A DNA stretch of 57,313 nucleotides from Gemmataceae bacterium (GTDB lineage Bacteria > Planctomycetota > Planctomycetia > Gemmatales > Gemmataceae). The stretch covers positions 1-57,313 of the forward strand of contig JANNLP010000383.1 of the NCBI GenBank assembly GCA_031396905.1, written 5' to 3'. The notes under the pieces were generated by a model. The model was given only the letters and a program-made list of their open reading frames with translations. It had not been told where the DNA came from and ran no database searches. Position 1 is the first letter of the stretch; every line of letters begins with the position of its first letter. Both the position numbers and the translations under genes were made by a program. Shown piece by piece: positions 2-28,630 of the stretch.

Positions 2-145
2 CTGATGCAGGCCTTGCGCGGCAACGCGGACCGCGGTCTGGCGATCCTCATGGACCGCCGCACCACCAGCTTCGCCGGCACCGCCGACGAAGTTCCGGAT
101 GAGGAAGTCATCAACGCGATCAAGTCGGTACCATGCCATTATTGA
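2..145 (+). CDS. 3' end of an unidentified CDS (last 47 aa, ...EVINAIKSVPCHY-stop), truncated by the window edge
   Basis: Frame 2 is open from the window edge to TGA at 143-145, with GC-rich third positions. No family recognised. Confidence 0.35.
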   Translation: MMQALRGNADRGLAILMDRRTTSFAGTADEVPDEEVINAIKSVPCHY

Positions 146-147
146 CG

Positions 148-248
148 CAATTGCGGATTTGCGATTGATGATTGCGGATTGAAAGCCCGATAGACAATCT
201 CTCTGTCAGGGCTATTGGAATCCGCAATCCGAAATCAACAATCCGAAG
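148..248. repeat. Long imperfect palindrome built from GCGGATT/TCGGATT/GCGATT heptamers, directly upstream of the E2-like gene
   Basis: Left arm is ttGCGGATTtGCGATTgatgattGCGGATTg (150-181). Right arm is ggAATCCGCAATCCGAaatcaacAATCCGAag (218-248). The inner stem agccc/gggct (184-188 / 209-213) encloses gaca...tgtc. The right arm ends 8 nt before the ATG at 256. Confidence 0.6.
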
Positions 249-255
249 TGTTCCC

Positions 256-681
256 ATGGGCCTACTTGATTCCGATGCCGGGAAGCGGCGGTTGTTGACC
301 GTCGAGGTGCCGGCTATTGAGCAGTACAACGCCGGGCGTGACCCGGAGTACCGGATCATTATTCACCGGCTGGGTGGGGCAGTGGTGATGCGTTATCGGC
401 TCAAGCCGGCGCATAACATCTACCTGCTCGAAACCCGTTTGCTGGCCAGTTACCCGACCGTACCGCCGGAGACGCGGGCGATCTCGCCGATGAAGCACTG
501 CCCGCACATGCTCGAAGGCCAAACCATGTGCATGTGGCGGCAAGGCTCGACCCGCGCGACCAATCGCTGGGATCCCGCCAGGTTCACGTGTGTCTTCGCC
601 GTGCAAGCCGCCTGGCGTTGGCTCGCCTGCTACGAAATCTGGCACGACACCGGCGAATGGCCCCTGCCTGAGGCGAAGTGA
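256..681 (+). CDS. UBC-fold E2-like (ubiquitin-conjugating enzyme-like) protein, 141 aa
   Basis: The translation ...YLLETRLLASYPTVPPETRAISPMKHCPHMLEGQTMCMWRQGSTRATNRWDPARF... matches the UBC core pattern: YPxxPP, HxP[NH], GxxxC, WxPA. The candidate catalytic Cys codon is 529-531. The start was moved from 172 to ATG 256 because 172-255 is the palindromic repeat. Confidence 0.7.
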   Translation: MGLLDSDAGKRRLLTVEVPAIEQYNAGRDPEYRIIIHRLGGAVVMRYRLKPAHNIYLLETRLLASYPTVPPETRAISPMKHCPHMLEGQTMCMWRQGSTRATNRWDPARFTCVFAVQAAWRWLACYEIWHDTGEWPLPEAK

Positions 682-1184
682 ATACTCCAGAAAACAAGTC
701 GACTCCAACAATTGGCAACGACGGAGGCGTGCGTACTTCACTGACAGGCGGTGACAAGATAGCAGCTTCGTTCCTTGTGATGATTCCTGTTGGCCTAGTA
801 GGAATATTTCTGGTCTGGATTTGTTTCGAGGGCGGCTCGGGTTCGGCCGACGCAGCCAAGGAGTTGATTAGGGAGATTAAGATACTGGGACCAGATTCTG
901 AGCCATTGCCGATTTCTGGATATGCGACAAAGAAGTACGACAACGGCGAATGGATAGTTGGCGTTGGCAAAGATAGTCATGGTTTCTTTGCTAAATTGAA
1001 CGGGGGCGGCACGCTGGTTGTCAAAGATAGCCGTGGGGACATTCGATGCTTTCTTGGCCATGTTTGTGGTCCAGGAGGCTTGCGTGACCGATTGAGTTGC
1101 ACCATGTCGCTAGACGACTTTTACAAGGAATTGATCGAATGGGATACGTTTGGCGAGTTGCGGTTTTCAACGAACAAAAAGTAG
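678..1184 (+). CDS. Hypothetical single-pass membrane protein (168 aa), low-GC gene lying between E2-like and E1-like genes
   Basis: The GTG start overlaps the E2 stop (GTGA at 678-681). There is one hydrophobic helix (IAASFLVMIPVGLVGIFLVWICF) followed by a soluble domain of about 115 aa. My hand count is about 49% G+C over 721-1200, versus 60-67% in sampled flanking lines. Confidence 0.6.
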   Translation: MNTPENKSTPTIGNDGGVRTSLTGGDKIAASFLVMIPVGLVGIFLVWICFEGGSGSADAAKELIREIKILGPDSEPLPISGYATKKYDNGEWIVGVGKDSHGFFAKLNGGGTLVVKDSRGDIRCFLGHVCGPGGLRDRLSCTMSLDDFYKELIEWDTFGELRFSTNKK

Positions 1185-1346
1185 CTAGTTGATTTGTGAT
1201 TCGCCCCACCGTCGTCATCGCTCGTTGTTCCATGGCCTGAGTCAGCGCGCCGCAAAGTATTCAAACCCCACCCCTTGCACGGGGTAACTTCTGCACGCAT
1301 TCACTGTGATGGATCATGAACTTGGGTATCATTCGATCGGAACGAA

Positions 1347-2159
1347 ATGGCCAAACTCCTCCAAGTCGGTGTCGGTTCCGGTGGCATGCCGGTTTTGGAT
1401 GCGGTTGCTCGCGATCCGCGCGTTGATTACGTCGCGCTATTTGATCCTGACATTTATCAGGAGCACAATGTCGAGCGGCATATGTTTGGCCGCGACGGCA
1501 TCGGCCAACTTAAGACCGAGCTTGCAAAGAAATGGTTGCACAATCGGCGGCCGGACCTTGGTGTGCACGAAATGGCATGGGATATTTGTGACCCGCGTTA
1601 TCTCAACGAGCTGAGAACATTCGCGGATGCCTGCGACATCGGCGTGTGCGCGGCCGACAACGAGCCGGCCAAGTACTCGTTCGATGCCTTAATGCGTCGT
1701 GCGGGCAAACCGTGGACGCTGGGCGAGGTTCTTTCGGGCGGCATCGGTGGATTGGTGCATCGCTTTGTGCCTGGCGGACCATGTTACGGGTGCGTGGCCA
1801 GTCATTTGCAACGCAACGTCACCGAAGCACCAAAGTCGCCTCTGCCGGACTACGCCGCGCCGCAACATGCGGTTGTCGATGTGCGCATCCCGGCGAGCAA
1901 GGCAGCCATCGCGACCATTGCGGGATTGCACGCCCTGGTGACGCTTGATCTGTTGGACAACGTTGATCCCGGGTTCACCACGCTTTTGTTATCATTGAAA
2001 AAGGTAGATGGTGTATTCGCCGAGGCGTATCGGCCGCACCGCTTTGTGGTGCCGAAGCTTGAAGGATGTTTGATTTGCGGCACGGCCAATCCGGCCGTCG
2101 CGGAGGGTGAATTGGATGTGGCCCTCGATCAAGCGTTTGCGCGATTGGGCGACAGTTGA
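1347..2159 (+). CDS. ThiF/MoeB-family E1-like adenylyltransferase (270 aa)
   Basis: It has the Rossmann loop VGVGSGG, FDPDIYQEHNVERH (the position of the D-x-D...N-x-x-R motif) and CAADNEPA. Two CxxC pairs (CYGC, CLIC) are typical of the ThiF/MoeB zinc site. Confidence 0.85.
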   Translation: MAKLLQVGVGSGGMPVLDAVARDPRVDYVALFDPDIYQEHNVERHMFGRDGIGQLKTELAKKWLHNRRPDLGVHEMAWDICDPRYLNELRTFADACDIGVCAADNEPAKYSFDALMRRAGKPWTLGEVLSGGIGGLVHRFVPGGPCYGCVASHLQRNVTEAPKSPLPDYAAPQHAVVDVRIPASKAAIATIAGLHALVTLDLLDNVDPGFTTLLLSLKKVDGVFAEAYRPHRFVVPKLEGCLICGTANPAVAEGELDVALDQAFARLGDS

Positions 2160-3288
2160 CCGCACGGCGGTTCACGTCAGCGCTGAATTGGCGGGCTTGG
2201 TCTTGACCAATCAGCCAGTGCCGTGGAATGCGGAGGCGGTGATTGTGGAAGCCGGTTTGCGCTTGCCAACCGGTGCACGTCGCAAGGACGACTTCGCATT
2301 ACGATTGCCGGGCCGCGAACCGGTGCGTGCGGAAACACTACGTGCCGAGGGCCCAGGCGATCAGCACTTCGTGGCATTCCGCATGCCGCCGCCGCGTGCG
2401 AATACCGTGGCCGAGTTGACGTGGCGCGACCGCACTCTGGGCCGGGCCGAGATTACCATTCTCTCGAAAGAGTCGTTTCTTCAATCACTGAAGTTGCAAT
2501 TGCCCACGCTGCACGTTCGCATCGGCGAAGAATGCGTTGCGGCACAGACCTTCATCGCATCACAGTGCTCGGGATTATCAATGGCCGGCCTGTTGACCGC
2601 GACGACAAGCCTGGCACCAATTGTCGAACTGGGCATGACAGTCGAGGTGCGCGGCGAGTTCGGCGTGGTCATGGCCAGCGTGCCGGTGCCGCTGACTGGC
2701 TCGCAATTGTCCGGCCGGCAGGCATTGGTCGCGGCCGCCCCGCGCAAATTGCCGAAAAAATCGGGTACATGGACTGTGCGCTGGCTGGTAGCCGAGCGCG
2801 AGTTGGCGGTGAACCGTGCTAAGGCGCTCAGCCCCGCGATTGCACGGCGATCATTGCGCATGGTCGGCACACGCTTCGCGGTGCGATCTGATGCCGGTGT
2901 TTCATTGCAACGCCAGGCGCCCGCACCGGCTGAAAATGTGATGGTCGGCCCGTGTTTTTTAGTGGCCAGCAGTGAGCCGGGCATGGCCGCATCATTGGAA
3001 TTTGAAGTATCACCCATCGGTCCGGGTGAACGGTGGACGCAGCAGGTTTTGATCACCGATGGCCCCACGCCAGTGATTCCAGGCTTGATCCCTGCAGCCG
3101 ATCTGGCCGACATCACGGGATTTGAACTGCGGCTTCGTGGCCGGCTGCTCGGAATGCTGCCGCTGCACCCGATGCCTAATGCGAAACTCACCGCCGAAGG
3201 TGGCTTCATGCCGCCGCCGGATTTCTCCTGGTCGCCAGCCGCTGAAGAGGAGTTGGGTGAGCGATTAACAAAGTTGATGGGTGGTTGA
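2116..3288 (+). CDS. Hypothetical 390-aa protein with C-terminal Gly-Gly, translationally coupled to the E1-like gene
   Basis: ATG 2116 is preceded by GGAGGG (2102-2107) at 8-nt spacing and overlaps the E1 gene by 44 nt. It ends ...ERLTKLMGG-TGA. GC3 is high. No family recognised. Confidence 0.7.
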   Translation: MWPSIKRLRDWATVDRTAVHVSAELAGLVLTNQPVPWNAEAVIVEAGLRLPTGARRKDDFALRLPGREPVRAETLRAEGPGDQHFVAFRMPPPRANTVAELTWRDRTLGRAEITILSKESFLQSLKLQLPTLHVRIGEECVAAQTFIASQCSGLSMAGLLTATTSLAPIVELGMTVEVRGEFGVVMASVPVPLTGSQLSGRQALVAAAPRKLPKKSGTWTVRWLVAERELAVNRAKALSPAIARRSLRMVGTRFAVRSDAGVSLQRQAPAPAENVMVGPCFLVASSEPGMAASLEFEVSPIGPGERWTQQVLITDGPTPVIPGLIPAADLADITGFELRLRGRLLGMLPLHPMPNAKLTAEGGFMPPPDFSWSPAAEEELGERLTKLMGG

Positions 3289-3550: not shown

Positions 3551-4291
3551 TCATTCCGCCATCATTTCCGCCGTCAAGTCCGCGTCGGTGAAGACTTGTT
3601 GCACGTCATCGTGGTCGTCGAGGGCGTCGATCATTTTGGCGATCTTCTTGCCCGTTTCGACATCCACTTCTTTCGGCATCTTTGCGAGCTGGGCGATTTG
3701 CGAATGGCCGATGGCCACGCCGGCTTTCTCCAGGCCCTCTTTAACTTGGATGTACGAAGCGGCATCGCAGGTGATCTCGAAGCCTTCATCGGTTTTCTGC
3801 AGGTCGTCAGCACCGGCATCCAGGGCGATGCCCATCAAGGTGTCTTCATCCAACGTGGTCGCGGTTACACTAAAAAGGCCTTTGCGCTCAAATAGGAATC
3901 CTACGTTGCCGGCTGAACCCATTTTGCCACCGGCGCGATCCATGATCTTGCGGACTTCGCCCGATGTGCGGTTACGGTTGTCCGTCATCACTTCAATCAG
4001 CACGGCCGACCCGCCGGGGCCGAAGCCCTCGTACATCAATTCTTCGAGAACCTCGGTGCCGGCCTCACCGGTGCCACGCTTGATGGCCCGTTCGATGTTG
4101 TCCTTCGGCATGGATACGTCGCGGGCTTTGTCGATGGCATAGCGGAGCTTAAGGTTGGTGATCGGATCGCCACCGCCGCTGCGGGCTGCGATGATGATGT
4201 AGCGCGAAAGCTTGCTCCACAGCTTGCCGCGCTTGGCGTCGATCACGGCTTTCTTGCCGGCAATATTTGCGTAATGAGAATGCCCTGCCAT
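3551..4291 (-). CDS. yebC: YebC/PmpR-family transcriptional regulator
   Basis: N-terminus MAGHSHYANIAGKKAVIDAKRGKLWSKL... and the 246-aa length are characteristic of the family. Confidence 0.93.
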   Translation of the reverse strand: MAGHSHYANIAGKKAVIDAKRGKLWSKLSRYIIIAARSGGGDPITNLKLRYAIDKARDVSMPKDNIERAIKRGTGEAGTEVLEELMYEGFGPGGSAVLIEVMTDNRNRTSGEVRKIMDRAGGKMGSAGNVGFLFERKGLFSVTATTLDEDTLMGIALDAGADDLQKTDEGFEITCDAASYIQVKEGLEKAGVAIGHSQIAQLAKMPKEVDVETGKKIAKMIDALDDHDDVQQVFTDADLTAEMMAE

Positions 4292-4413: not shown

Positions 4414-6114
4414 TCAGTTAAGACTCTTGCTAGCGCTGGCGAGTTTGTGTTTGAGCAGGGCGGGGCGTGGATCATCCCGATGCGTACGGCTCTTTTCGCT
4501 GTGCTGCACGGCATTCGTCCAAGCCACGATGGCGCGATCGTGTTTGCCCCGGGCTGCGAGGATATCGCCGTAATGTTCCCATACCACCGCATCGAGCTTG
4601 CCGCCCGGCAAGGCCAATGCCTGTTCGATTTGTTCCTGAGCGGCAATCAAGCGACCCTGTCGAAAATACACCCAGCCGAGGCTATCGCGATATGCGGCCT
4701 CATCGCCGCCCGGGTCATCGCCGCCGATCGACTCCCGGCCCTGATCCACCGCGAAGCGGCAGAGTCTTTCAGCATCATCGAGCCGGCGATTCTGGTCGGC
4801 CCAAAAGTAGCCAAGGTTGTTATGTGCCAGTGCGTCTTTGGGTGAAAGCTCCAGGACACGTAGTAAGTGGCCTTCCGCGGCCGCGTTATCGCCTCGATAT
4901 TCAGCTAAGGACGCGAGACGCATCCGCAATTGCATTTCGGAGTCCCGGTCGCGAAACTCGTCAAAGGCCTTGCGCGCCACGGTCTGTGCGGCGTCGTGCT
5001 GGCCGAACCACGAAAGTACTTCGATTTGCAGCAAGTACTGCCGTACACCGGTGCCCCGTTTGACCACTTCGGTCGCCGCCGCTAATGCATCTTCCTCCCG
5101 ATCGAGGTGCATCAGGGCGCGGGCCTGATGAAAGTAAAATCCCTTGCGAAACTCGTCCTGATATTCTTTTATGCAACGCCGGCTTAGCTGCTCGGCACGA
5201 CTGAATTGGCCTGCCTGGCCATAAAGCATGAGCAATGCGTCATACACGCTCAAGGCATTGGCCGGACGAGCCGGCAACCACGATTTCAGAGTCGATTCCG
5301 CGACGTCGATGCAATTCCCGGCAATCCCCAGGCGAACGACTCGATAACTATCCTCTGGCCAACTACTGTCTGGCTGCGGTGCCGGGTATTTCTTCAACAG
5401 CGCCACAACAGCGGCAGGTTCGGTTTGCAATCCAGCCATGATGGCCTTGGCTCGGTCTGGCTGCCCAGGGTCCGACTCGCGCAACAGTGCGACCAGTTGT
5501 TCTGGTTTCTTCGTTTGCAGGCGTGCCAAGCTTGCATACGCAATCGGATCACTGTGGTCCTCTAACCATGTCAACAACCGCGATTCGTTGCGTTCGCACT
5601 CCGCGAGAGCGGCAATTGGGCCGGCCAGCTTCGGCAGTGCATCGGCCCAACGCTTCAGGTCCGGGACCAAGGTCGCAGGCCGGCCGCATTTGCCAACCAG
5701 TTCGGGCAGTTGGTTTGCCGTGATCCTATTTGTTGATGCATCGCCTGCCAGCAGTTGACGCAAAACCTTAATGTCACCGGTCAGGCGCACCACTTCACGC
5801 CGGCAGCGATCTGTGCCCGACTGATCATGGGCTAATTCATAAGCATCGGCTGCCTCGCGATAATGTTCGGCAGCAAGGTTTGCATCATCAATGGCGGAAT
5901 AGCGGCCGAGTGCTTCGCGGGCGGCAGGCAACGTCTTCGCTTTTTCGAAAGTGCGAATGGCGGCGTCTTCGTTGCCGAGTCGATCAAGTTCCCGCGCCAG
6001 CGCGAGCCATCGCGCGGGGTCGTTTGGCTGACTCTCGGCCGTCATCTGAAGTCGTTCGACCATCGACGGCACGGCCGGGGGCACAGGATCCCATGCCACC
6101 ACCAGCGCCGTCAT
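4414..6114 (-). CDS. TPR-repeat protein (about 566 aa)
   Basis: There are multiple TPR-like helical repeats, e.g. ALAHNNLGYFWADQNRRLDDAERLCRFAV and AVVWEHYGDILAARGKHDRAIVAWTNAV. The start was set at Met-76 of the ORF (MTALVV...) to avoid overlap with the divergent ATPase gene; it is uncertain. Confidence 0.75.
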   Translation of the reverse strand: MTALVVAWDPVPPAVPSMVERLQMTAESQPNDPARWLALARELDRLGNEDAAIRTFEKAKTLPAAREALGRYSAIDDANLAAEHYREAADAYELAHDQSGTDRCRREVVRLTGDIKVLRQLLAGDASTNRITANQLPELVGKCGRPATLVPDLKRWADALPKLAGPIAALAECERNESRLLTWLEDHSDPIAYASLARLQTKKPEQLVALLRESDPGQPDRAKAIMAGLQTEPAAVVALLKKYPAPQPDSSWPEDSYRVVRLGIAGNCIDVAESTLKSWLPARPANALSVYDALLMLYGQAGQFSRAEQLSRRCIKEYQDEFRKGFYFHQARALMHLDREEDALAAATEVVKRGTGVRQYLLQIEVLSWFGQHDAAQTVARKAFDEFRDRDSEMQLRMRLASLAEYRGDNAAAEGHLLRVLELSPKDALAHNNLGYFWADQNRRLDDAERLCRFAVDQGRESIGGDDPGGDEAAYRDSLGWVYFRQGRLIAAQEQIEQALALPGGKLDAVVWEHYGDILAARGKHDRAIVAWTNAVQHSEKSRTHRDDPRPALLKHKLASASKSLN

Positions 6115-6190
6115 GCTCAGCCAAATAGACAACACTCGCGCAGACCCTGGAACACGGAACAATTCGACGATTAACCATATTCTATCAGCC

Positions 6191-9031
6191 ATGACCACTC
6201 GTAACGATGCGCCGGGACTGCCGCCGGAACAGATCATTGCCAGCCGCGCCAAGCATGGCACCAATGTGTTGACGCCGCCGAAGCGCGAACCGTGGTGGCG
6301 GCAATACCTGGCCAAGTTTGACGACCCGGTGATTCGCATTCTGATGATCGCCGCGGCCGTCGCTATCGCCGTCGGTGCTGCGGAGGGTCACTATGCCGAG
6401 GGTGTTGGCATCGTTCTGGCCGTGTTGTTGTCCACAGGGTTGGCGTTTGCCAACGAGTTTCGTGCCGCGCGTGAATTCGACATTCTGAATCGCACTAGTG
6501 ATGATGTCGCGGTCACCGTTCGGCGGAGCGGCAATTTCACCACCGTGCCACGTCGCGATGTCGTCGTGGGCGACTTGGTGCAAGTCGAAGTCGGTGCCGA
6601 AATCCCCGCAGACGGCAAGCTCATCGAATCGGTCGGCCTCAAAGTCAGCGAATCACGGTTGACCGGCGAATCGAGGCCCGTTGACAAGCATGCCGATCCG
6701 GTGCATCACGATGACTCAGCTTATGCGCCGGATCATTTGTTGCGCAGCACGACCGTGGTGGATGGGCTTGGCCTTTTTAAGGTAATCGCCGTCGGCGACG
6801 GCACGCAGATCGGGCAAACCGCTCGCGCGGCTGCGGAAGAATCCGGTGTCGAGACGCCGCTGAATCGGCAACTGTTGCGCTTAAGCCAATGGATCGGCGT
6901 TGTCGGCTTCGGTGTGTCGCTGTTGACGTTCATCGCACTGGTGGCACGCGACCTGTTGACGAACGCGCTCGTGCTGAACGCGCAACAATGGTCGGTGGTC
7001 GCCGTTGCGGTCATCGGAATCAACATCGCGCTGGTGCGCGTTTGGCTCCCGATCGTGTTCGATGCACTGTATCTGACGGGTCTGAAGGTCAAACAACCCG
7101 CATGGCTTGAAGTCGAAGGGATATATGCGTGGTTGATAACTCTTGGACTGGGCATGGGCGTGATGGTCCTCGGTGCCATGATGGGTTGGCTTTTCGGTGA
7201 CTGGCCAGCACGGCCGACGGAGTGGCTGCCCGCGGAATCCGTCAAGGCATTTCTTGCTTACTTCATGATTGCCGTCACCATCGTCGTCGTTGCCGTGCCG
7301 GAAGGGTTGGCAATGAGCGTGACACTGAGTCTTGCCTATTCCATGCGCAAGATGACGGCGAGCAACTGCCTGGTCCGCCGACTGCACGCCTGCGAGACCA
7401 TCGGTGCGGCCACGGTGATTTGCTCCGACAAGACCGGCACGTTGACGATGAACGAGATGCGCGTGGTTCACGCGGATTTCAACGGCCCAATGGACTTGAT
7501 GGCCGAGGCCATTGCCGCCAACTCAACCGCACAACTGGATCGCTCCGGCGATGTGTACACACCGGTGGGCAATCCCACGGAGGGTGCATTGTTGTTGTGG
7601 TTGGCGGACAAAGGTCTTGACTATCACGGCATTCGCGCTAGCTTCAACGTCGCCGAGCAGTGGACCTTCAGCACCGAGCGCAAATTCATGGCCACGCGCG
7701 GCCGCTCCGCAAGCTCGGGCAAGAACGTAATCCATGTCAAAGGCGCGCCGGAAGTTGTGTTGGAACGGTGCACGGGGCAATCGGATGCGATTCGCCAGCA
7801 ACTTCGCGACTATCAATCACGCGGCATGAGAACTTTGGGTCTCGCTTATGCCGAGGTGGCCGATGTCTCGGCGGAGTTGGATCAACTTGCGCAGAATCTT
7901 ACCTGGCTCGGCGTGATTGCCATCGCTGATCCAATACGCCTTGAAGTACCCGCCGCGGTCGCCGCTTGCGGCTTAGCCGGAATCGCCGTGAAGATCGTCA
8001 CCGGCGACAATGCGGACACTGCGAAAGAAATCGCCCGGCAAATCGGCTTGTGGAGCGCGAACGAAGCACCAGCCGCCCATTGCACCGGCACTGACTTTGA
8101 AGCCATGTCGGACGATGATGCTTCCCGCGCGGCGAAGGAACTCAAGGTGCTTTCCCGCGCACGCCCGGCCGATAAGTTGCGGCTAGTGCGGTTGTTGCAA
8201 AAACAGGGCGAAGTCGTCGCCGTCACCGGCGATGGCGTGAATGATGGACCCGCACTCAATTATGCGGACGTGGGTTTGGCGATGGGCAAGACCGGCTCGG
8301 CGGTTGCCAAGGAAGCCAGCGACATTATTCTGCTGGACGATTCGTTTCAGAGCATCGTCAATGCGGTAATGTGGGGCCGTTCTCTGTACGAGAACATTCA
8401 ACGTTTCGTGTTATTCCAATTGACGATCAACGTGGCGGCGCTGGCGGTGGCGTTTCTCGGCCCGTTTCTCGGGTTTCAGTTGCCGCTCACGGTCATGCAG
8501 ATGTTGTGGGTCAACTTGATCATGGACACGTTTGCCGCGCTGGCCCTGGCGACCGAGCCGCCAAATGCTGCCGTGTTGAATCGTCCGCCGCGCGATCCGA
8601 AGGCGTTCATTGTCACGCCGACGATGGCCCGCAACATCTTCGGCACCGGCATCATGTTCGTCGTGGCCGTGGTTGGGTTGATTTTGATCCTGCAGTACAA
8701 CGGCGCTTTGCCGGCGGACAACGCACCGTCGCGCGGCAGCTCCATTCTGTTTTGCGTGTTTGTATTTCTGCAGTTCTGGAACCTATTCAATGCCCGCACT
8801 TTGGGCGGCACACGCTCGGCCTTTGATGGCTTGCGGCACAACCCCGCTTTCATCGCCATCGTGGTGGCGATCTTCATCGGCCAGGTGCTGATGGTGCAAT
8901 TCGGCGGCCAAGTGTTCCGTACGGTGCCGTTGCCGTGGCTCGATTGGTTGCTGGTCGTCGTCGGCACTTCGGTCGTCCTAATTGTTGGCGAGGTGATGCG
9001 CTGGCGCTACCGGAAACCAGCGGCCGCCTGA
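6191..9031 (+). CDS. Cation-translocating P-type ATPase, Ca2+-ATPase-like (P2 type)
   Basis: It carries DKTGTLT (CSDKTGTLTMNEM), TGES, TGDGVNDGPAL, VTGDNADTA and about 10 TM segments. The start is at MTTRNDAPGLPPEQIIASRAKHGTNVL. Confidence 0.93.
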   Translation: MTTRNDAPGLPPEQIIASRAKHGTNVLTPPKREPWWRQYLAKFDDPVIRILMIAAAVAIAVGAAEGHYAEGVGIVLAVLLSTGLAFANEFRAAREFDILNRTSDDVAVTVRRSGNFTTVPRRDVVVGDLVQVEVGAEIPADGKLIESVGLKVSESRLTGESRPVDKHADPVHHDDSAYAPDHLLRSTTVVDGLGLFKVIAVGDGTQIGQTARAAAEESGVETPLNRQLLRLSQWIGVVGFGVSLLTFIALVARDLLTNALVLNAQQWSVVAVAVIGINIALVRVWLPIVFDALYLTGLKVKQPAWLEVEGIYAWLITLGLGMGVMVLGAMMGWLFGDWPARPTEWLPAESVKAFLAYFMIAVTIVVVAVPEGLAMSVTLSLAYSMRKMTASNCLVRRLHACETIGAATVICSDKTGTLTMNEMRVVHADFNGPMDLMAEAIAANSTAQLDRSGDVYTPVGNPTEGALLLWLADKGLDYHGIRASFNVAEQWTFSTERKFMATRGRSASSGKNVIHVKGAPEVVLERCTGQSDAIRQQLRDYQSRGMRTLGLAYAEVADVSAELDQLAQNLTWLGVIAIADPIRLEVPAAVAACGLAGIAVKIVTGDNADTAKEIARQIGLWSANEAPAAHCTGTDFEAMSDDDASRAAKELKVLSRARPADKLRLVRLLQKQGEVVAVTGDGVNDGPALNYADVGLAMGKTGSAVAKEASDIILLDDSFQSIVNAVMWGRSLYENIQRFVLFQLTINVAALAVAFLGPFLGFQLPLTVMQMLWVNLIMDTFAALALATEPPNAAVLNRPPRDPKAFIVTPTMARNIFGTGIMFVVAVVGLILILQYNGALPADNAPSRGSSILFCVFVFLQFWNLFNARTLGGTRSAFDGLRHNPAFIAIVVAIFIGQVLMVQFGGQVFRTVPLPWLDWLLVVVGTSVVLIVGEVMRWRYRKPAAA

Positions 9032-21464: not shown

Positions 21465-21532
21465 TCACCACGAAAGACACGAAATATGACTGGAAGTCAC
21501 CGTGTTCGTGTATTTCGTGTCTTTCGTGGTGA
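21465..21532. terminator. Perfect 22-bp inverted repeat (REP-like hairpin) between convergent genes
   Basis: tcaccacgaaagacacgaaata (21465-21486) and tatttcgtgtctttcgtggtga (21511-21532) are exact reverse complements with a 24-nt loop. The element abuts the stop of the 21533-21721 gene. Confidence 0.65.
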
Positions 21533-22890: not shown

Positions 22891-23084
22891 GGGCCACCTG
22901 GTAGTGGGTCAGTTTGGTTTTCTTCGCGCTTCCTTCGTGTTCTTTGTGTCTTTGTGGTTGGTCTTAAGAACTCACCACAAAGACACGAAGAACACAAAGG
23001 AAAACACAAAGAAGACCGGTGCATTTCCAAACTCGTCAATTCCTCACCCTGTGGCAAATTGACCCACTACCGGCCACCTAGTAG
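22891..23084. repeat. MITE-like nested palindromic element
   Basis: The 12-bp terminal inverted repeats are ggtagtgggtca (22899-22910) and tgacccactacc (23060-23071). A flanking 13-nt direct repeat ggccacct[g/a]gtag lies at 22891-22903 and 23072-23084. The central 27-bp near-perfect hairpin is 22932-22958 / 22974-23000, related in sequence to the 21465-21532 hairpin. There is no coding capacity. Confidence 0.5.
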
Positions 23085-27637: not shown

Positions 27638-28630
27638 TCACTGGACAAATTGCATGATCTCGGCCATCACGCCGAAGTACTCGTCAAACGACAGCCCATC
27701 AACGGACAGTGTTCGCTGAGCGGTCACCCCATCGATCAGCGGGCCGGCGTCGATCATGATTTGCAACAGACGGTGTTCTTCGTTGGTGTCGAAAAGCGAG
27801 GCATCGAATGGCACGCCGCGCAACACTCGCACGCCGGTGGCCAACGCATATGCGCCCCAGTTGCTGATGCCGGCTACGATGAGTTCGTTTGTTGGCGTGC
27901 AACAGCCGACCTTGTCGCCATTGGCGATGTTGCGTGCGATGGTGGGGCGCGGGATTTTGCCCATGCCGATTTCGTTGCCGCCGTCGCCGATGCCGATAGT
28001 GATCGCGTCACCGGGGTTGTCGAACAGGTAATGAGCGGGCCGCGTCAGGTGCGTCATTTCGCGGCCCCGCATGGAGTAACAGCGGCCGTCGCTGTGACTG
28101 GGGCCGACACGTTCGAGTGCGATTAGGATGTTGGCGGGGGCGGCGCGGCGATAAAACTCTTGGCGGAATGTATCGGGGTCGGTTTCGTCGGGCAATTCCA
28201 CTACAGGTACGGTGTCCGAGTATTCGTAGCGGTAGTCGCCAGACTTCCGCTCTTGTCTTTCGGCGGAACTCTGGCGAGTTCCGCTACGATGATCCAATTC
28301 CGCGGCCGCCACCCCCGCTCGCAATGCTGCCATCGTGGTGCCGTCGCTGGCCAGCGTCACTGGAATACTCAACGGTGACAATGCTCGGGCCAGGTACAGC
28401 GCTCCCAGCGGACCATCGGTTTCACCACATGGTGGGTCCGCCGAGGGGATCGTGAAACCGGTGATAATAGCAATGCGCGGTGATGGATGTGTCGCAATGT
28501 TGCGACAAGCGCGCACGAAGTCGCCGGCGGTTGCGGTGATGAGATTGTCGCGCGCGTCAGCCGCCAGGCCGCGGTTGCCGGGGTCGCCCTGCACGATGGC
28601 CAAGATCTGTTCGAGTTTCTGTTCAATCAT
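27638..28630 (-). CDS. DUF4392-family protein (D-glutamate-cyclase-like domain)
   Basis: It has DPGNRGL, IAIITGFTIP...CGETDGPLGALYLARAL, IGIGDGGNEIGMGKI and GISNWGAYALA. The start at MIEQKLEQ gives an ATGA overlap with the RluA stop (28627-28630). Confidence 0.75.
   Translation of the reverse strand: MIEQKLEQILAIVQGDPGNRGLAADARDNLITATAGDFVRACRNIATHPSPRIAIITGFTIPSADPPCGETDGPLGALYLARALSPLSIPVTLASDGTTMAALRAGVAAAELDHRSGTRQSSAERQERKSGDYRYEYSDTVPVVELPDETDPDTFRQEFYRRAAPANILIALERVGPSHSDGRCYSMRGREMTHLTRPAHYLFDNPGDAITIGIGDGGNEIGMGKIPRPTIARNIANGDKVGCCTPTNELIVAGISNWGAYALATGVRVLRGVPFDASLFDTNEEHRLLQIMIDAGPLIDGVTAQRTLSVDGLSFDEYFGVMAEIMQFVQ

Follow-up and report, generated by a model that had tools for sequence, protein, structure and literature searches.

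A five-gene operon of the Gemmataceae encodes CBASS-related E1-, E2- and JAB-like proteins together with a 60-residue candidate modifier

The window analysed in this work is the entire NCBI contig JANNLP010000383.1 of a Gemmataceae bacterium (57,313 nt), and it starts inside a gene. Its 5' part holds the right-hand four-fifths of a five-gene operon encoding, in this order, a JAB protease, a small protein of 60 amino acids (aa) that we call s60, an E2-like conjugating enzyme (E2), a ThiF-type E1-like adenylating enzyme (E1) and a protein of about 400 aa with three immunoglobulin (Ig)-like domains (open reading frame 4, ORF4). Gene content, homology, conservation and structure models are given here as the tools returned them. 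An earlier sequence-only reading had described the region as four co-directional, coupled ORFs forming a divergent, possibly uncharacterised protein-conjugation module with a membrane component, without a deubiquitinase (DUB) or a small partner, and had suspected that the operon extends leftwards. The four ORFs were confirmed on the plus strand, with products of 141, 168, 270 and 390 aa (Table 1), as were both overlaps, GTGA at 678-681 and 44 nt at 2116-2159, and the tools recognised a real E2 and a real ThiF-type E1 among the products, in agreement with a conjugation module. The suspected extension was also correct: bases 2-145 hold the last part of the s60 gene, and a JAB gene precedes s60 in relatives. 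The lack of a DUB and of a small partner, on the other hand, proved to be an artefact, because the contig end cuts off the JAB gene and the 5' part of s60, both of which are constant members of the operon. Our searches of the literature found no description of this five-gene operon.

The distribution of the operon was followed with a profile of ORF4, which collected 80 species-level loci from genomes of Gemmataceae/Gemmatales or from metagenome-assembled genomes (MAGs) labelled more broadly or doubtfully. Gene order could be judged in the 56 loci with at least 3 kb of upstream flank, and the order JAB, s60, E2, E1, ORF4 was kept in 52 of them, the nearest relatives L094 and L003 included; the co-conservation that the earlier reading had proposed to look for is thus present, and the operon is fixed and syntenic across the family Gemmataceae. 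When the operon splits, s60 remains with JAB and E2, and E1 remains with ORF4. This is the case in Limnoglobus roseus, where the half with JAB, s60 and E2 is separate from E1-ORF4 (the E2 side was seen), while Zavarzinella formosa and one Limnoglobus MAG carry E1-ORF4 with no JAB, s60 or E2 within 10 kb. Among the 34 loci with 10-kb flanks, no gene other than the five recurs within 10 kb and, therefore, no cGAS/DncV-like nucleotidyltransferase (CD-NTase) or effector is conserved there. Rfam, tRNA and promoter/terminator scans added nothing.

The E2 contains the UBC-like peptide YPTVPPE...HCPHMLEGQTMC quoted in the earlier reading. It matched 11 PADLOC models, ten of them E2 models of cyclic oligonucleotide-based antiphage signaling systems (CBASS; best match 7.5e-11). 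A local Pfam scan of the window E2 gave no match, and its assignment to PF26395 (E2-CBASS) comes from precomputed annotation of its homologues. Profile searches of the PDB returned weak matches (E about 0.2), all to E2 enzymes and with the cysteine aligned to their catalytic cysteine. His84 and Cys92 are invariant down to relatives of 23-48% identity, unlike His81 and Cys82, which vary in distant relatives, and the pattern YP..PP...PH(x7)C is invariant over the range from 23 to 94% identity. E2s of the species-level loci are 69-82% identical to that of the window. The family profile recovered only 133 clusters among 1.84 billion representatives. Among the distant ones are E2s that stand alone, fusions of a JAB with an E2 and proteins with an E2 domain at the C-terminus, the last of which score strongly on the CBASS E2 models. 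These comparisons place the protein in the UBC/E2 superfamily, as a predicted relative of the CBASS E2s.

The E1 shows all the motifs first read by eye, namely VGVGSGG, FDPD..N.ERH and CAADNEPA together with the CxxC pairs CYGC and CLIC. It matches PF00899 at 3.6e-15 and the PADLOC models of the CBASS E1-E2 protein Cap2 at about 8e-19 (7.8e-19). In the PDB profile search its relatives were UBA5 (2.6e-8), MccB (1.5e-7) and Cap2 (6e-5), as well as MoeB, ThiF and the NEDD8 and SUMO E1s; the MccB alignment spans the full length of the E1, which corresponds to residues 117-348 only of MccB. The earlier reading had left room for a sulfur-carrier enzyme. This was ruled out, since the NCBIfam scores for ThiF (41 bits, cut-off 275), MoeB (27 bits, cut-off 449) and SAMP E1 (44 bits, cut-off 450) are far below their cut-offs, and no MoaD or ThiS occurs among the gene calls or among the conserved neighbours of related loci. 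Five cysteines of the E1 are invariant, Cys101 and the four of the two CxxC pairs. Escherichia coli Cap2 was inactivated by mutating the CxxC pair C493/C496, its presumed active site (PMC10097602) and, by analogy, a cysteine of the CxxC pairs may be the catalytic one in the E1. Another possibility is that the adenylate is handed straight to the E2.

The JAB gene lies upstream of s60 in Urbifossiella limnaea, in L. roseus, in the nearest NCBI relative and in a JGI contig encoding proteins that share 82-94% identity with those of the window. The JAB of relatives matches PF14464 at 6e-9 and the PADLOC CBASS JAB model at 3e-7, and the JAMM site EE(T/I)GW ... HTHPGSLRxPSxGD is intact in 44 orthologues. 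By its E...HxH...S..D metal site, it is predicted to be a JAMM/MPN+ isopeptidase. YPFLPP motifs in two divergent JAB proteins had raised the idea that the C-terminal extension of JAB is a degenerate E2 or ubiquitin E2 variant; hhalign against the E2 profile gave a probability of 0.3%, and the idea was rejected for Gemmataceae.

The AlphaFold2 (AF2) model of ORF4, built from 120 homologues, has a mean predicted local distance difference test (pLDDT) of 88.9 and shows Ig-like beta-sandwich domains at residues of about 20-115, 126-238 and 247-350, a low-confidence linker and a C-terminal helix at 374-387; its Foldseek neighbours are domains of filamin, titin and complement C3. We also considered ORF4 as a hidden nucleotidyltransferase and rejected the idea on the AF2 and Foldseek results. 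The conserved Trp/Arg-rich N-terminus (MWPWIKRWRDW...) is encoded within the overlap with the E1 gene, which measures exactly 44 nt in 56 of 58 loci and whose two frames both encode a conserved protein sequence. This segment is truly dual-coding and, with the GGAGGG ribosome-binding site (RBS) found 8 nt ahead of the ORF4 start codon as previously read, it implies translational coupling of E1 and ORF4. At the other end, the tail carries the conserved motif EGGF.PP.DF.W..AAEEEL.ERL..L, and the residues that follow vary: 73% of homologues have a Gly at the aligned position and then 0-10 residues, and Gly is missing altogether from four of 117 tails (e.g., LLENRERN). The terminal GG of the window protein (...KLMGG) is limited to its clade.

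The s60 protein is always 60 aa long in Gemmataceae loci. It begins with an invariant MDFRPL and, in 63 of 64 loci, finishes with SVPCHY. A homologue search returned 1334 clusters, and the 120 listed ones share 75% identity or more with the query. The best AF2 model shows a helix, a hairpin, a second helix and a disordered tail, with a pLDDT of 71 (the other four models reached 55-60), and no family model matches the protein. Between s60 and the E2, the window has a long stem-loop with a minimum free energy of -43.3 kcal/mol and a z-score of -4.7. A hairpin occupies the same position in 51 of 58 orthologous spacers (L001-L083; median z -7.1), unrelated in sequence between species and often with arms of 7-nt tandem repeats, whereas the JAB-s60 spacers, of similar length, have one in only 4 of 58. 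Three other long, near-perfect hairpins of short repeated motifs were seen elsewhere in the window (Table 1), and hairpins of this type appear to be a genome-wide class of elements similar to repetitive extragenic palindromes. The specific feature of the operon is thus the retention of one hairpin at the s60-E2 position and not the type of hairpin. We infer that it sets the expression of s60 apart from that of the downstream enzymes.

More divergent operons were reached through contigs encoding distant relatives of the E2. All of them encode an E2, a small protein, a JAB that is often fused or anchored in the membrane, and a large partner rich in beta structure, and all but one have a ThiF-type E1 next to these. 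The small proteins align with s60, share an invariant His and end in [C/T/G]-H-[Y/F] followed by 0-3 residues (Table 1). Precursors of ubiquitin-like proteins (Ubl) that are matured by a protease have this layout, a conserved end and then a few variable residues. The large partners end in ...HAHVA, ...DSLK or ...ALRQ; their homology to ORF4 was tried with hhalign and was not significant (E 0.07-0.09), what they share with it being position and beta-rich character only. In these operons N-terminal transmembrane (TM) segments occur on the JAB and on the large partner, with the JAB membrane-anchored in L085, L086 and L088, and the Gemmataceae ORF4 and at least the JAB of L003 have Trp/Arg-rich N-termini in place of TM segments. 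These features hint that the system works beside the membrane. Two neighbours of divergent operons were also noted: L085 carries, on the minus strand and divergent to its operon copy, a gene for a Pup (prokaryotic ubiquitin-like protein) ligase of the PafA/Dop type with small flanking ORFs, and one operon adjoins an integrase and a GAPS4 defence system.

Homologues of s60 and of the E2 were also found on phage-like or viral contigs. A phage-like contig with a terminase and an AcrVA2-like gene (L091) encodes an s60 homologue ending in ...SIPCHY, along with an E2 sharing 60% identity with that of the window. Three IMG/VR sequences (L096, L097 and L098, one of 235 kb) have s60 homologues at around position 6001, where E1, E2 and JAB are absent out to a distance of 6 kb, and that of L097 ends in CHY-GSV. 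In a fourth (L099, IMG/VR UViG_3300032893_000179), a tail-completion gene (phrog_26, 1.6e-26) is directly followed by two adjacent ORFs of about 200 aa. Each starts with a leader of about 55 aa whose end corresponds to the last 19 or so residues of s60 (...EEVIQAIKSVPCHH in one and ...EEVIEAIKTVPAHY in the other, closing with AIKSVPCHH and AIKTVPAHY) and which is fused in-line to the rest of the protein. Some eukaryotic viruses encode ubiquitin-fusion genes, of which these leaders are reminiscent. The phage links favour s60 as a moiety whose C-terminus forms peptide-type bonds, and the phage-borne copies of s60 and E2 suggest, from their sequences, an action at the host-phage interface.

Table 1. 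Positions of the features discussed. Positions are those of the window unless an L number, our handle for other loci, is given.
Feature	Position	Strand	Description
s60 gene, 3' part	2-145	+	47 codons and stop; translation matches the full 60-aa genes of L001, L002 and L003
Long stem-loop between s60 and E2	147-251	+	Arms at about 154-180 and 219-245
E2-like conjugating enzyme, E2-CBASS family (predicted)	256-681	+	Catalytic Cys92 (codon 529-531), His84
ORF2, lineage-specific low-GC insert	678-1184	+	One predicted TM helix; E2-E1 slot
ThiF-type E1 adenylating enzyme (predicted)	1347-2159	+	GxGxxG, Arg-finger, AADNE, two CxxC pairs
RBS and E1/ORF4 dual-coding overlap	2102-2159	+	GGAGGG at 2102-2107; overlap at 2116-2159
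ORF4, 390-aa partner	2116-3288	+	Trp/Arg-rich N-terminus, three Ig-like domains, flexible tail, C-terminal helix
E2-E1 slot ORFs	682-1346; L094 8426-8932; L003 5279-7231; L039 3510-4061		Unrelated low-GC ORFs
YebC-like regulator (by eye)	3551-4291	-
Large TPR-like protein (by eye)	4414-6339	-
Other long hairpins	21465-21532; 22930-23002; 28224-28289
C-termini of divergent small proteins			L085 ...VPTHY-LRG; L090 ...VPTHF-AG; L092 ...GTHY-GS; L088 ...STHY-A
TM-bearing JAB/partner genes	L085 4800-5948, 7559-8044; L086 5042-6697; L088 2594-4261, 6638-8236
Pup-ligase gene and small flanking ORFs	L085 2808-4205	-	Divergent to operon copy
Phage-borne s60 homologue and E2	L091 4932-5956
Phage ORFs with s60-like leaders	L099 5893-6489, 6501-7103
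HK97-type head / eCIS neighbours	L003 1-3496; L093 1900-5600; L020 3687-5409; L076 13135-15630; L094 630-4874

The remaining ORF of the region, ORF2, was the membrane component of the sequence-only reading. Of the four coupled ORFs proposed there, the E2, the E1 and the 390-aa protein are co-conserved in relatives, and ORF2 occurs in none of at least 80 orthologous loci. It has no family match and is a singleton cluster among about 15 billion proteins, and it lies in a patch with a GC content of 0.48-0.52, the flanks having 0.60-0.64. The idea that ORF2 is a conserved partner in the membrane was consequently rejected in favour of a lineage-specific insert. The closest relatives have other, unrelated genes in the E2-E1 gap, a 139-aa ORF in L094 and a 97-aa ORF with a glycosyltransferase in L003, and the more distant L039 has an Mrr-type nuclease (Mrr_cat, PF04471, 5.7e-5). 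Therefore, this position is a variable slot that collects foreign low-GC genes. Downstream of the operon, the window has on the minus strand two genes that by eye look like those of a YebC-like regulator and of a large protein resembling tetratricopeptide repeats (TPR), neither of them conserved beside the operon in relatives. In four loci, HK97-type head genes (portal, S78 protease, capsid, head completion) adjoin the operon or its E1-ORF4 half, with 56-74% identity between loci for the protease and for the capsid, and a core gene of an extracellular contractile injection system (eCIS) lies upstream of the operon in the nearest relative.

Taken together, our findings are best read as a CBASS-related E1/E2/JAB cascade that conjugates s60 and includes a triple-Ig partner, a reading to which we give about an even chance. 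Which protein is the modifier, in which direction it is transferred, to what targets and in what biological role are points on which we infer the following. The ThiF-type E1 would adenylate the flexible ...SVPCHY tail of s60, which would be transferred as a thioester to Cys92 of the E2, assisted by His84, and ligated onto amino groups of target proteins. The JAMM-type JAB would take s60 off the targets again and, where 1-3 residues follow the His-Tyr/Phe, would also trim it to maturity. ORF4, translationally coupled to the E1, would be the scaffold, the substrate receptor or the main substrate, docking through its conserved C-terminal tail, and the stem-loop 3' of s60 probably keeps s60 in excess over the enzymes. 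More tentatively, and with less than even confidence, we propose that s60 represents a new type of modifier, of 60 aa, with a non-beta-grasp model and a mature end of His-Tyr instead of Gly-Gly, which CBASS-type E1 and E2 would conjugate and JAB would remove, and which would be fixed in a bacterial family while phages copy the modifier and the E2 and fuse proteins of their tail module to its tail.

Several observations weigh against conjugation of s60. The JAB is known from relatives only, as the contig of this organism ends inside s60. The s60 model is of moderate quality and is not a beta-grasp, a fold that it does not firmly exclude, and Foldseek found no PDB neighbour with E < 3. We know of no E1-E2 cascade using a C-terminal Tyr, and the bulky terminal residue may misfit the adenylation pocket of the E1. 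Nevertheless, MccB adenylates a C-terminal residue other than Gly and, because the E1 aligns full-length with MccB, a non-Gly C-terminus has a precedent. Finally, the E1 has no invariant cysteine beyond Cys101 and the CxxC four, and its tight coupling with ORF4, together with the terminal GG of ORF4 in this lineage, also fits ORF4 as the substrate of the E1.

This last point can be developed into the main rival scheme, that of a CBASS-like system without cyclase in which ORF4 replaces the CD-NTase: the E1 would adenylate its tail after trimming, the E2 would conjugate it and JAB would reverse the reaction, with s60 as an accessory. The near-constant overlap, the persistence of the E1-ORF4 pair when the operon splits and the flexible, conserved tail of about 40 aa, with its frequent Gly and variable extension, agree with this scheme. 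Previous studies offer parallels, since Cap2 conjugates the CD-NTase via a C-terminal Gly or Ala (PMC10097602) and the E2 of E2-CBASS removes residues beyond a near-terminal Gly (PMC12948482). The terminal residue of ORF4 is, however, not conserved, some tails lack Gly and the large partners of the divergent operons end differently, and for these reasons the terminal GG was downgraded as a conjugation site. Moreover, the conserved part of the tail is an internal motif with an acidic helix, more like a docking element, and what phages copy is s60 and E2, not ORF4. We therefore regard ORF4 as the conjugated protein as rather improbable. It is also conceivable that s60 is no modifier at all and serves the JAB/E2 pair as a small regulatory or adaptor subunit or as its dedicated substrate, while the conjugated species is another, for example by self-modification of E2 or ORF4, or a lipid. 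A model that is no beta-grasp and has no PDB neighbour, the absence of any family match and an N-terminus no less invariant than the C-terminus, which would fit more than one surface of interaction, speak for such a role, yet it makes the His-Tyr/Phe end with 0-3 variable residues and the in-line fusions of the tail motif in phages hard to explain, and we consider it unlikely.

Two further explanations carry little weight. In one of them the system does not conjugate: the E1 would adenylate the end of s60 for sulfur transfer or for an MccB-like modification of the peptide, and the E2 and JAB would be secondary. The E1 does align end to end with MccB, matches MoeB and ThiF and has two CxxC pairs as MoeB and MccB do, but its NCBIfam scores are those of an outsider to the ThiF, MoeB and SAMP-E1 families, no rhodanese domain, MoaD/ThiS partner or N-terminal peptide clamp was found, and its constant partners are an E2 whose catalytic Cys is invariant and a JAB whose JAMM motif is intact, all of which makes this explanation very unlikely. 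The other is the self-contained four-gene module of E2, membrane ORF2, E1 and 390-aa protein, truly devoid of a DUB and of a small modifier. No JAB is visible in the window and the four ORFs are co-directional, as such a module would have them; the s60 gene end at the contig edge, the JAB and s60 genes that precede the E2 in nearly all informative loci, those of L094 and L003 among them, and the restriction of ORF2 to the window contig leave it next to no probability.

To our knowledge, three families of bacterial ubiquitination-like operons have so far been shown to conjugate, namely type II CBASS, Bil and Bub, and all are sparsely distributed. The operon described here has CBASS-type enzymes without nucleotide signalling and is fixed by vertical descent throughout the Gemmataceae. 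Should s60 prove to be conjugated, ubiquitin-like modifiers would have to be defined more widely, both in fold and in C-terminal chemistry, and the operon would be a tractable example of a bacterial modifier that phages copy or fuse to. Our analysis also illustrates that a contig end can produce a false signal of a missing component, as happened with JAB and s60.

Among the known systems, type II CBASS is the closest in its enzymes. Its Cap2/Cap3 pair, an E1-E2 fusion and a JAB, acts on the C-terminus of the CD-NTase (PMC10097602). The best defence-model matches of the E2, E1 and JAB studied here are the CBASS E2, Cap2 and JAB models, the E2 belongs to PF26395, the E1 shares the CxxC pair whose cysteines were changed in E. 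coli Cap2 as the presumed active site, and the proposed logic is likewise a reversible conjugation via a C-terminal tail. Type II CBASS differs in having a CD-NTase and an effector, neither of which is conserved within our operon or around it; the only PADLOC cyclase match was that of the E2 to the E2-like C-terminal end (481-540 of 542) of a cyclase-E2 fusion model, and PADLOC gave no effector match. Moreover, the E1 and E2 are separate genes, two extra constant partners are present (s60 and the triple-Ig protein), and the operon is family-wide and syntenic whereas type II CBASS is sporadic. The E2-only (short) type II CBASS (PMC12948482) shares with our operon a free-standing E2 of about 140-160 aa that belongs to the same Pfam family and a partner with a C-terminal helix, which in that system recruits the E2; residues past a conserved C-terminal position are processed there, as is proposed here. 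It differs in that the E1 and JAB are always present in our operon and the partner is no nucleotidyltransferase.

In its organisation, the operon resembles Bil (BilABCD), where a small protein, an E2, a JAB and an E1 are separate genes of one operon and a phage tail protein is tagged (PMC10557695; PMC11601603), to which the phage tail-module ORFs carrying the s60 tail motif may be a parallel. Unlike those of Bil, the enzymes here score on CBASS models and on no other defence model, and there is an extra triple-Ig partner; s60, the candidate counterpart of the beta-grasp Ubl of Bil, is modelled as helix-hairpin-helix with a floppy tail, at a pLDDT of 71 that does not firmly exclude a beta-grasp, and ends in His-Tyr/Phe, and the domains of ORF4 are Ig-like. 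Bub (6E/DUF6527) is likewise a bacterial cassette of E1, E2 and peptidase with a diverged modifier, which works with oxyester intermediates and the DUF6527 serine protease BubE (PMC11601596). Here the E2 cysteine is invariant and no DUF6527 gene occurs among the conserved neighbours. In the maturation of microcin C7, MccB is a ThiF-fold enzyme with two CxxC pairs that the E1 matches over its full length, but MccB has an N-terminal peptide clamp, acts on the heptapeptide MccA and has no E2 or JAB partner. Lacking a cyclase and an effector, the operon therefore stands outside CBASS and, with no DUF6527 and the cysteine retained, outside Bub. Judged by its predicted proteins, it appears to fit none of the known bacterial ubiquitin-like systems, and joins a presumed Cap2/Cap3-like way of working to a Bil-like organisation.

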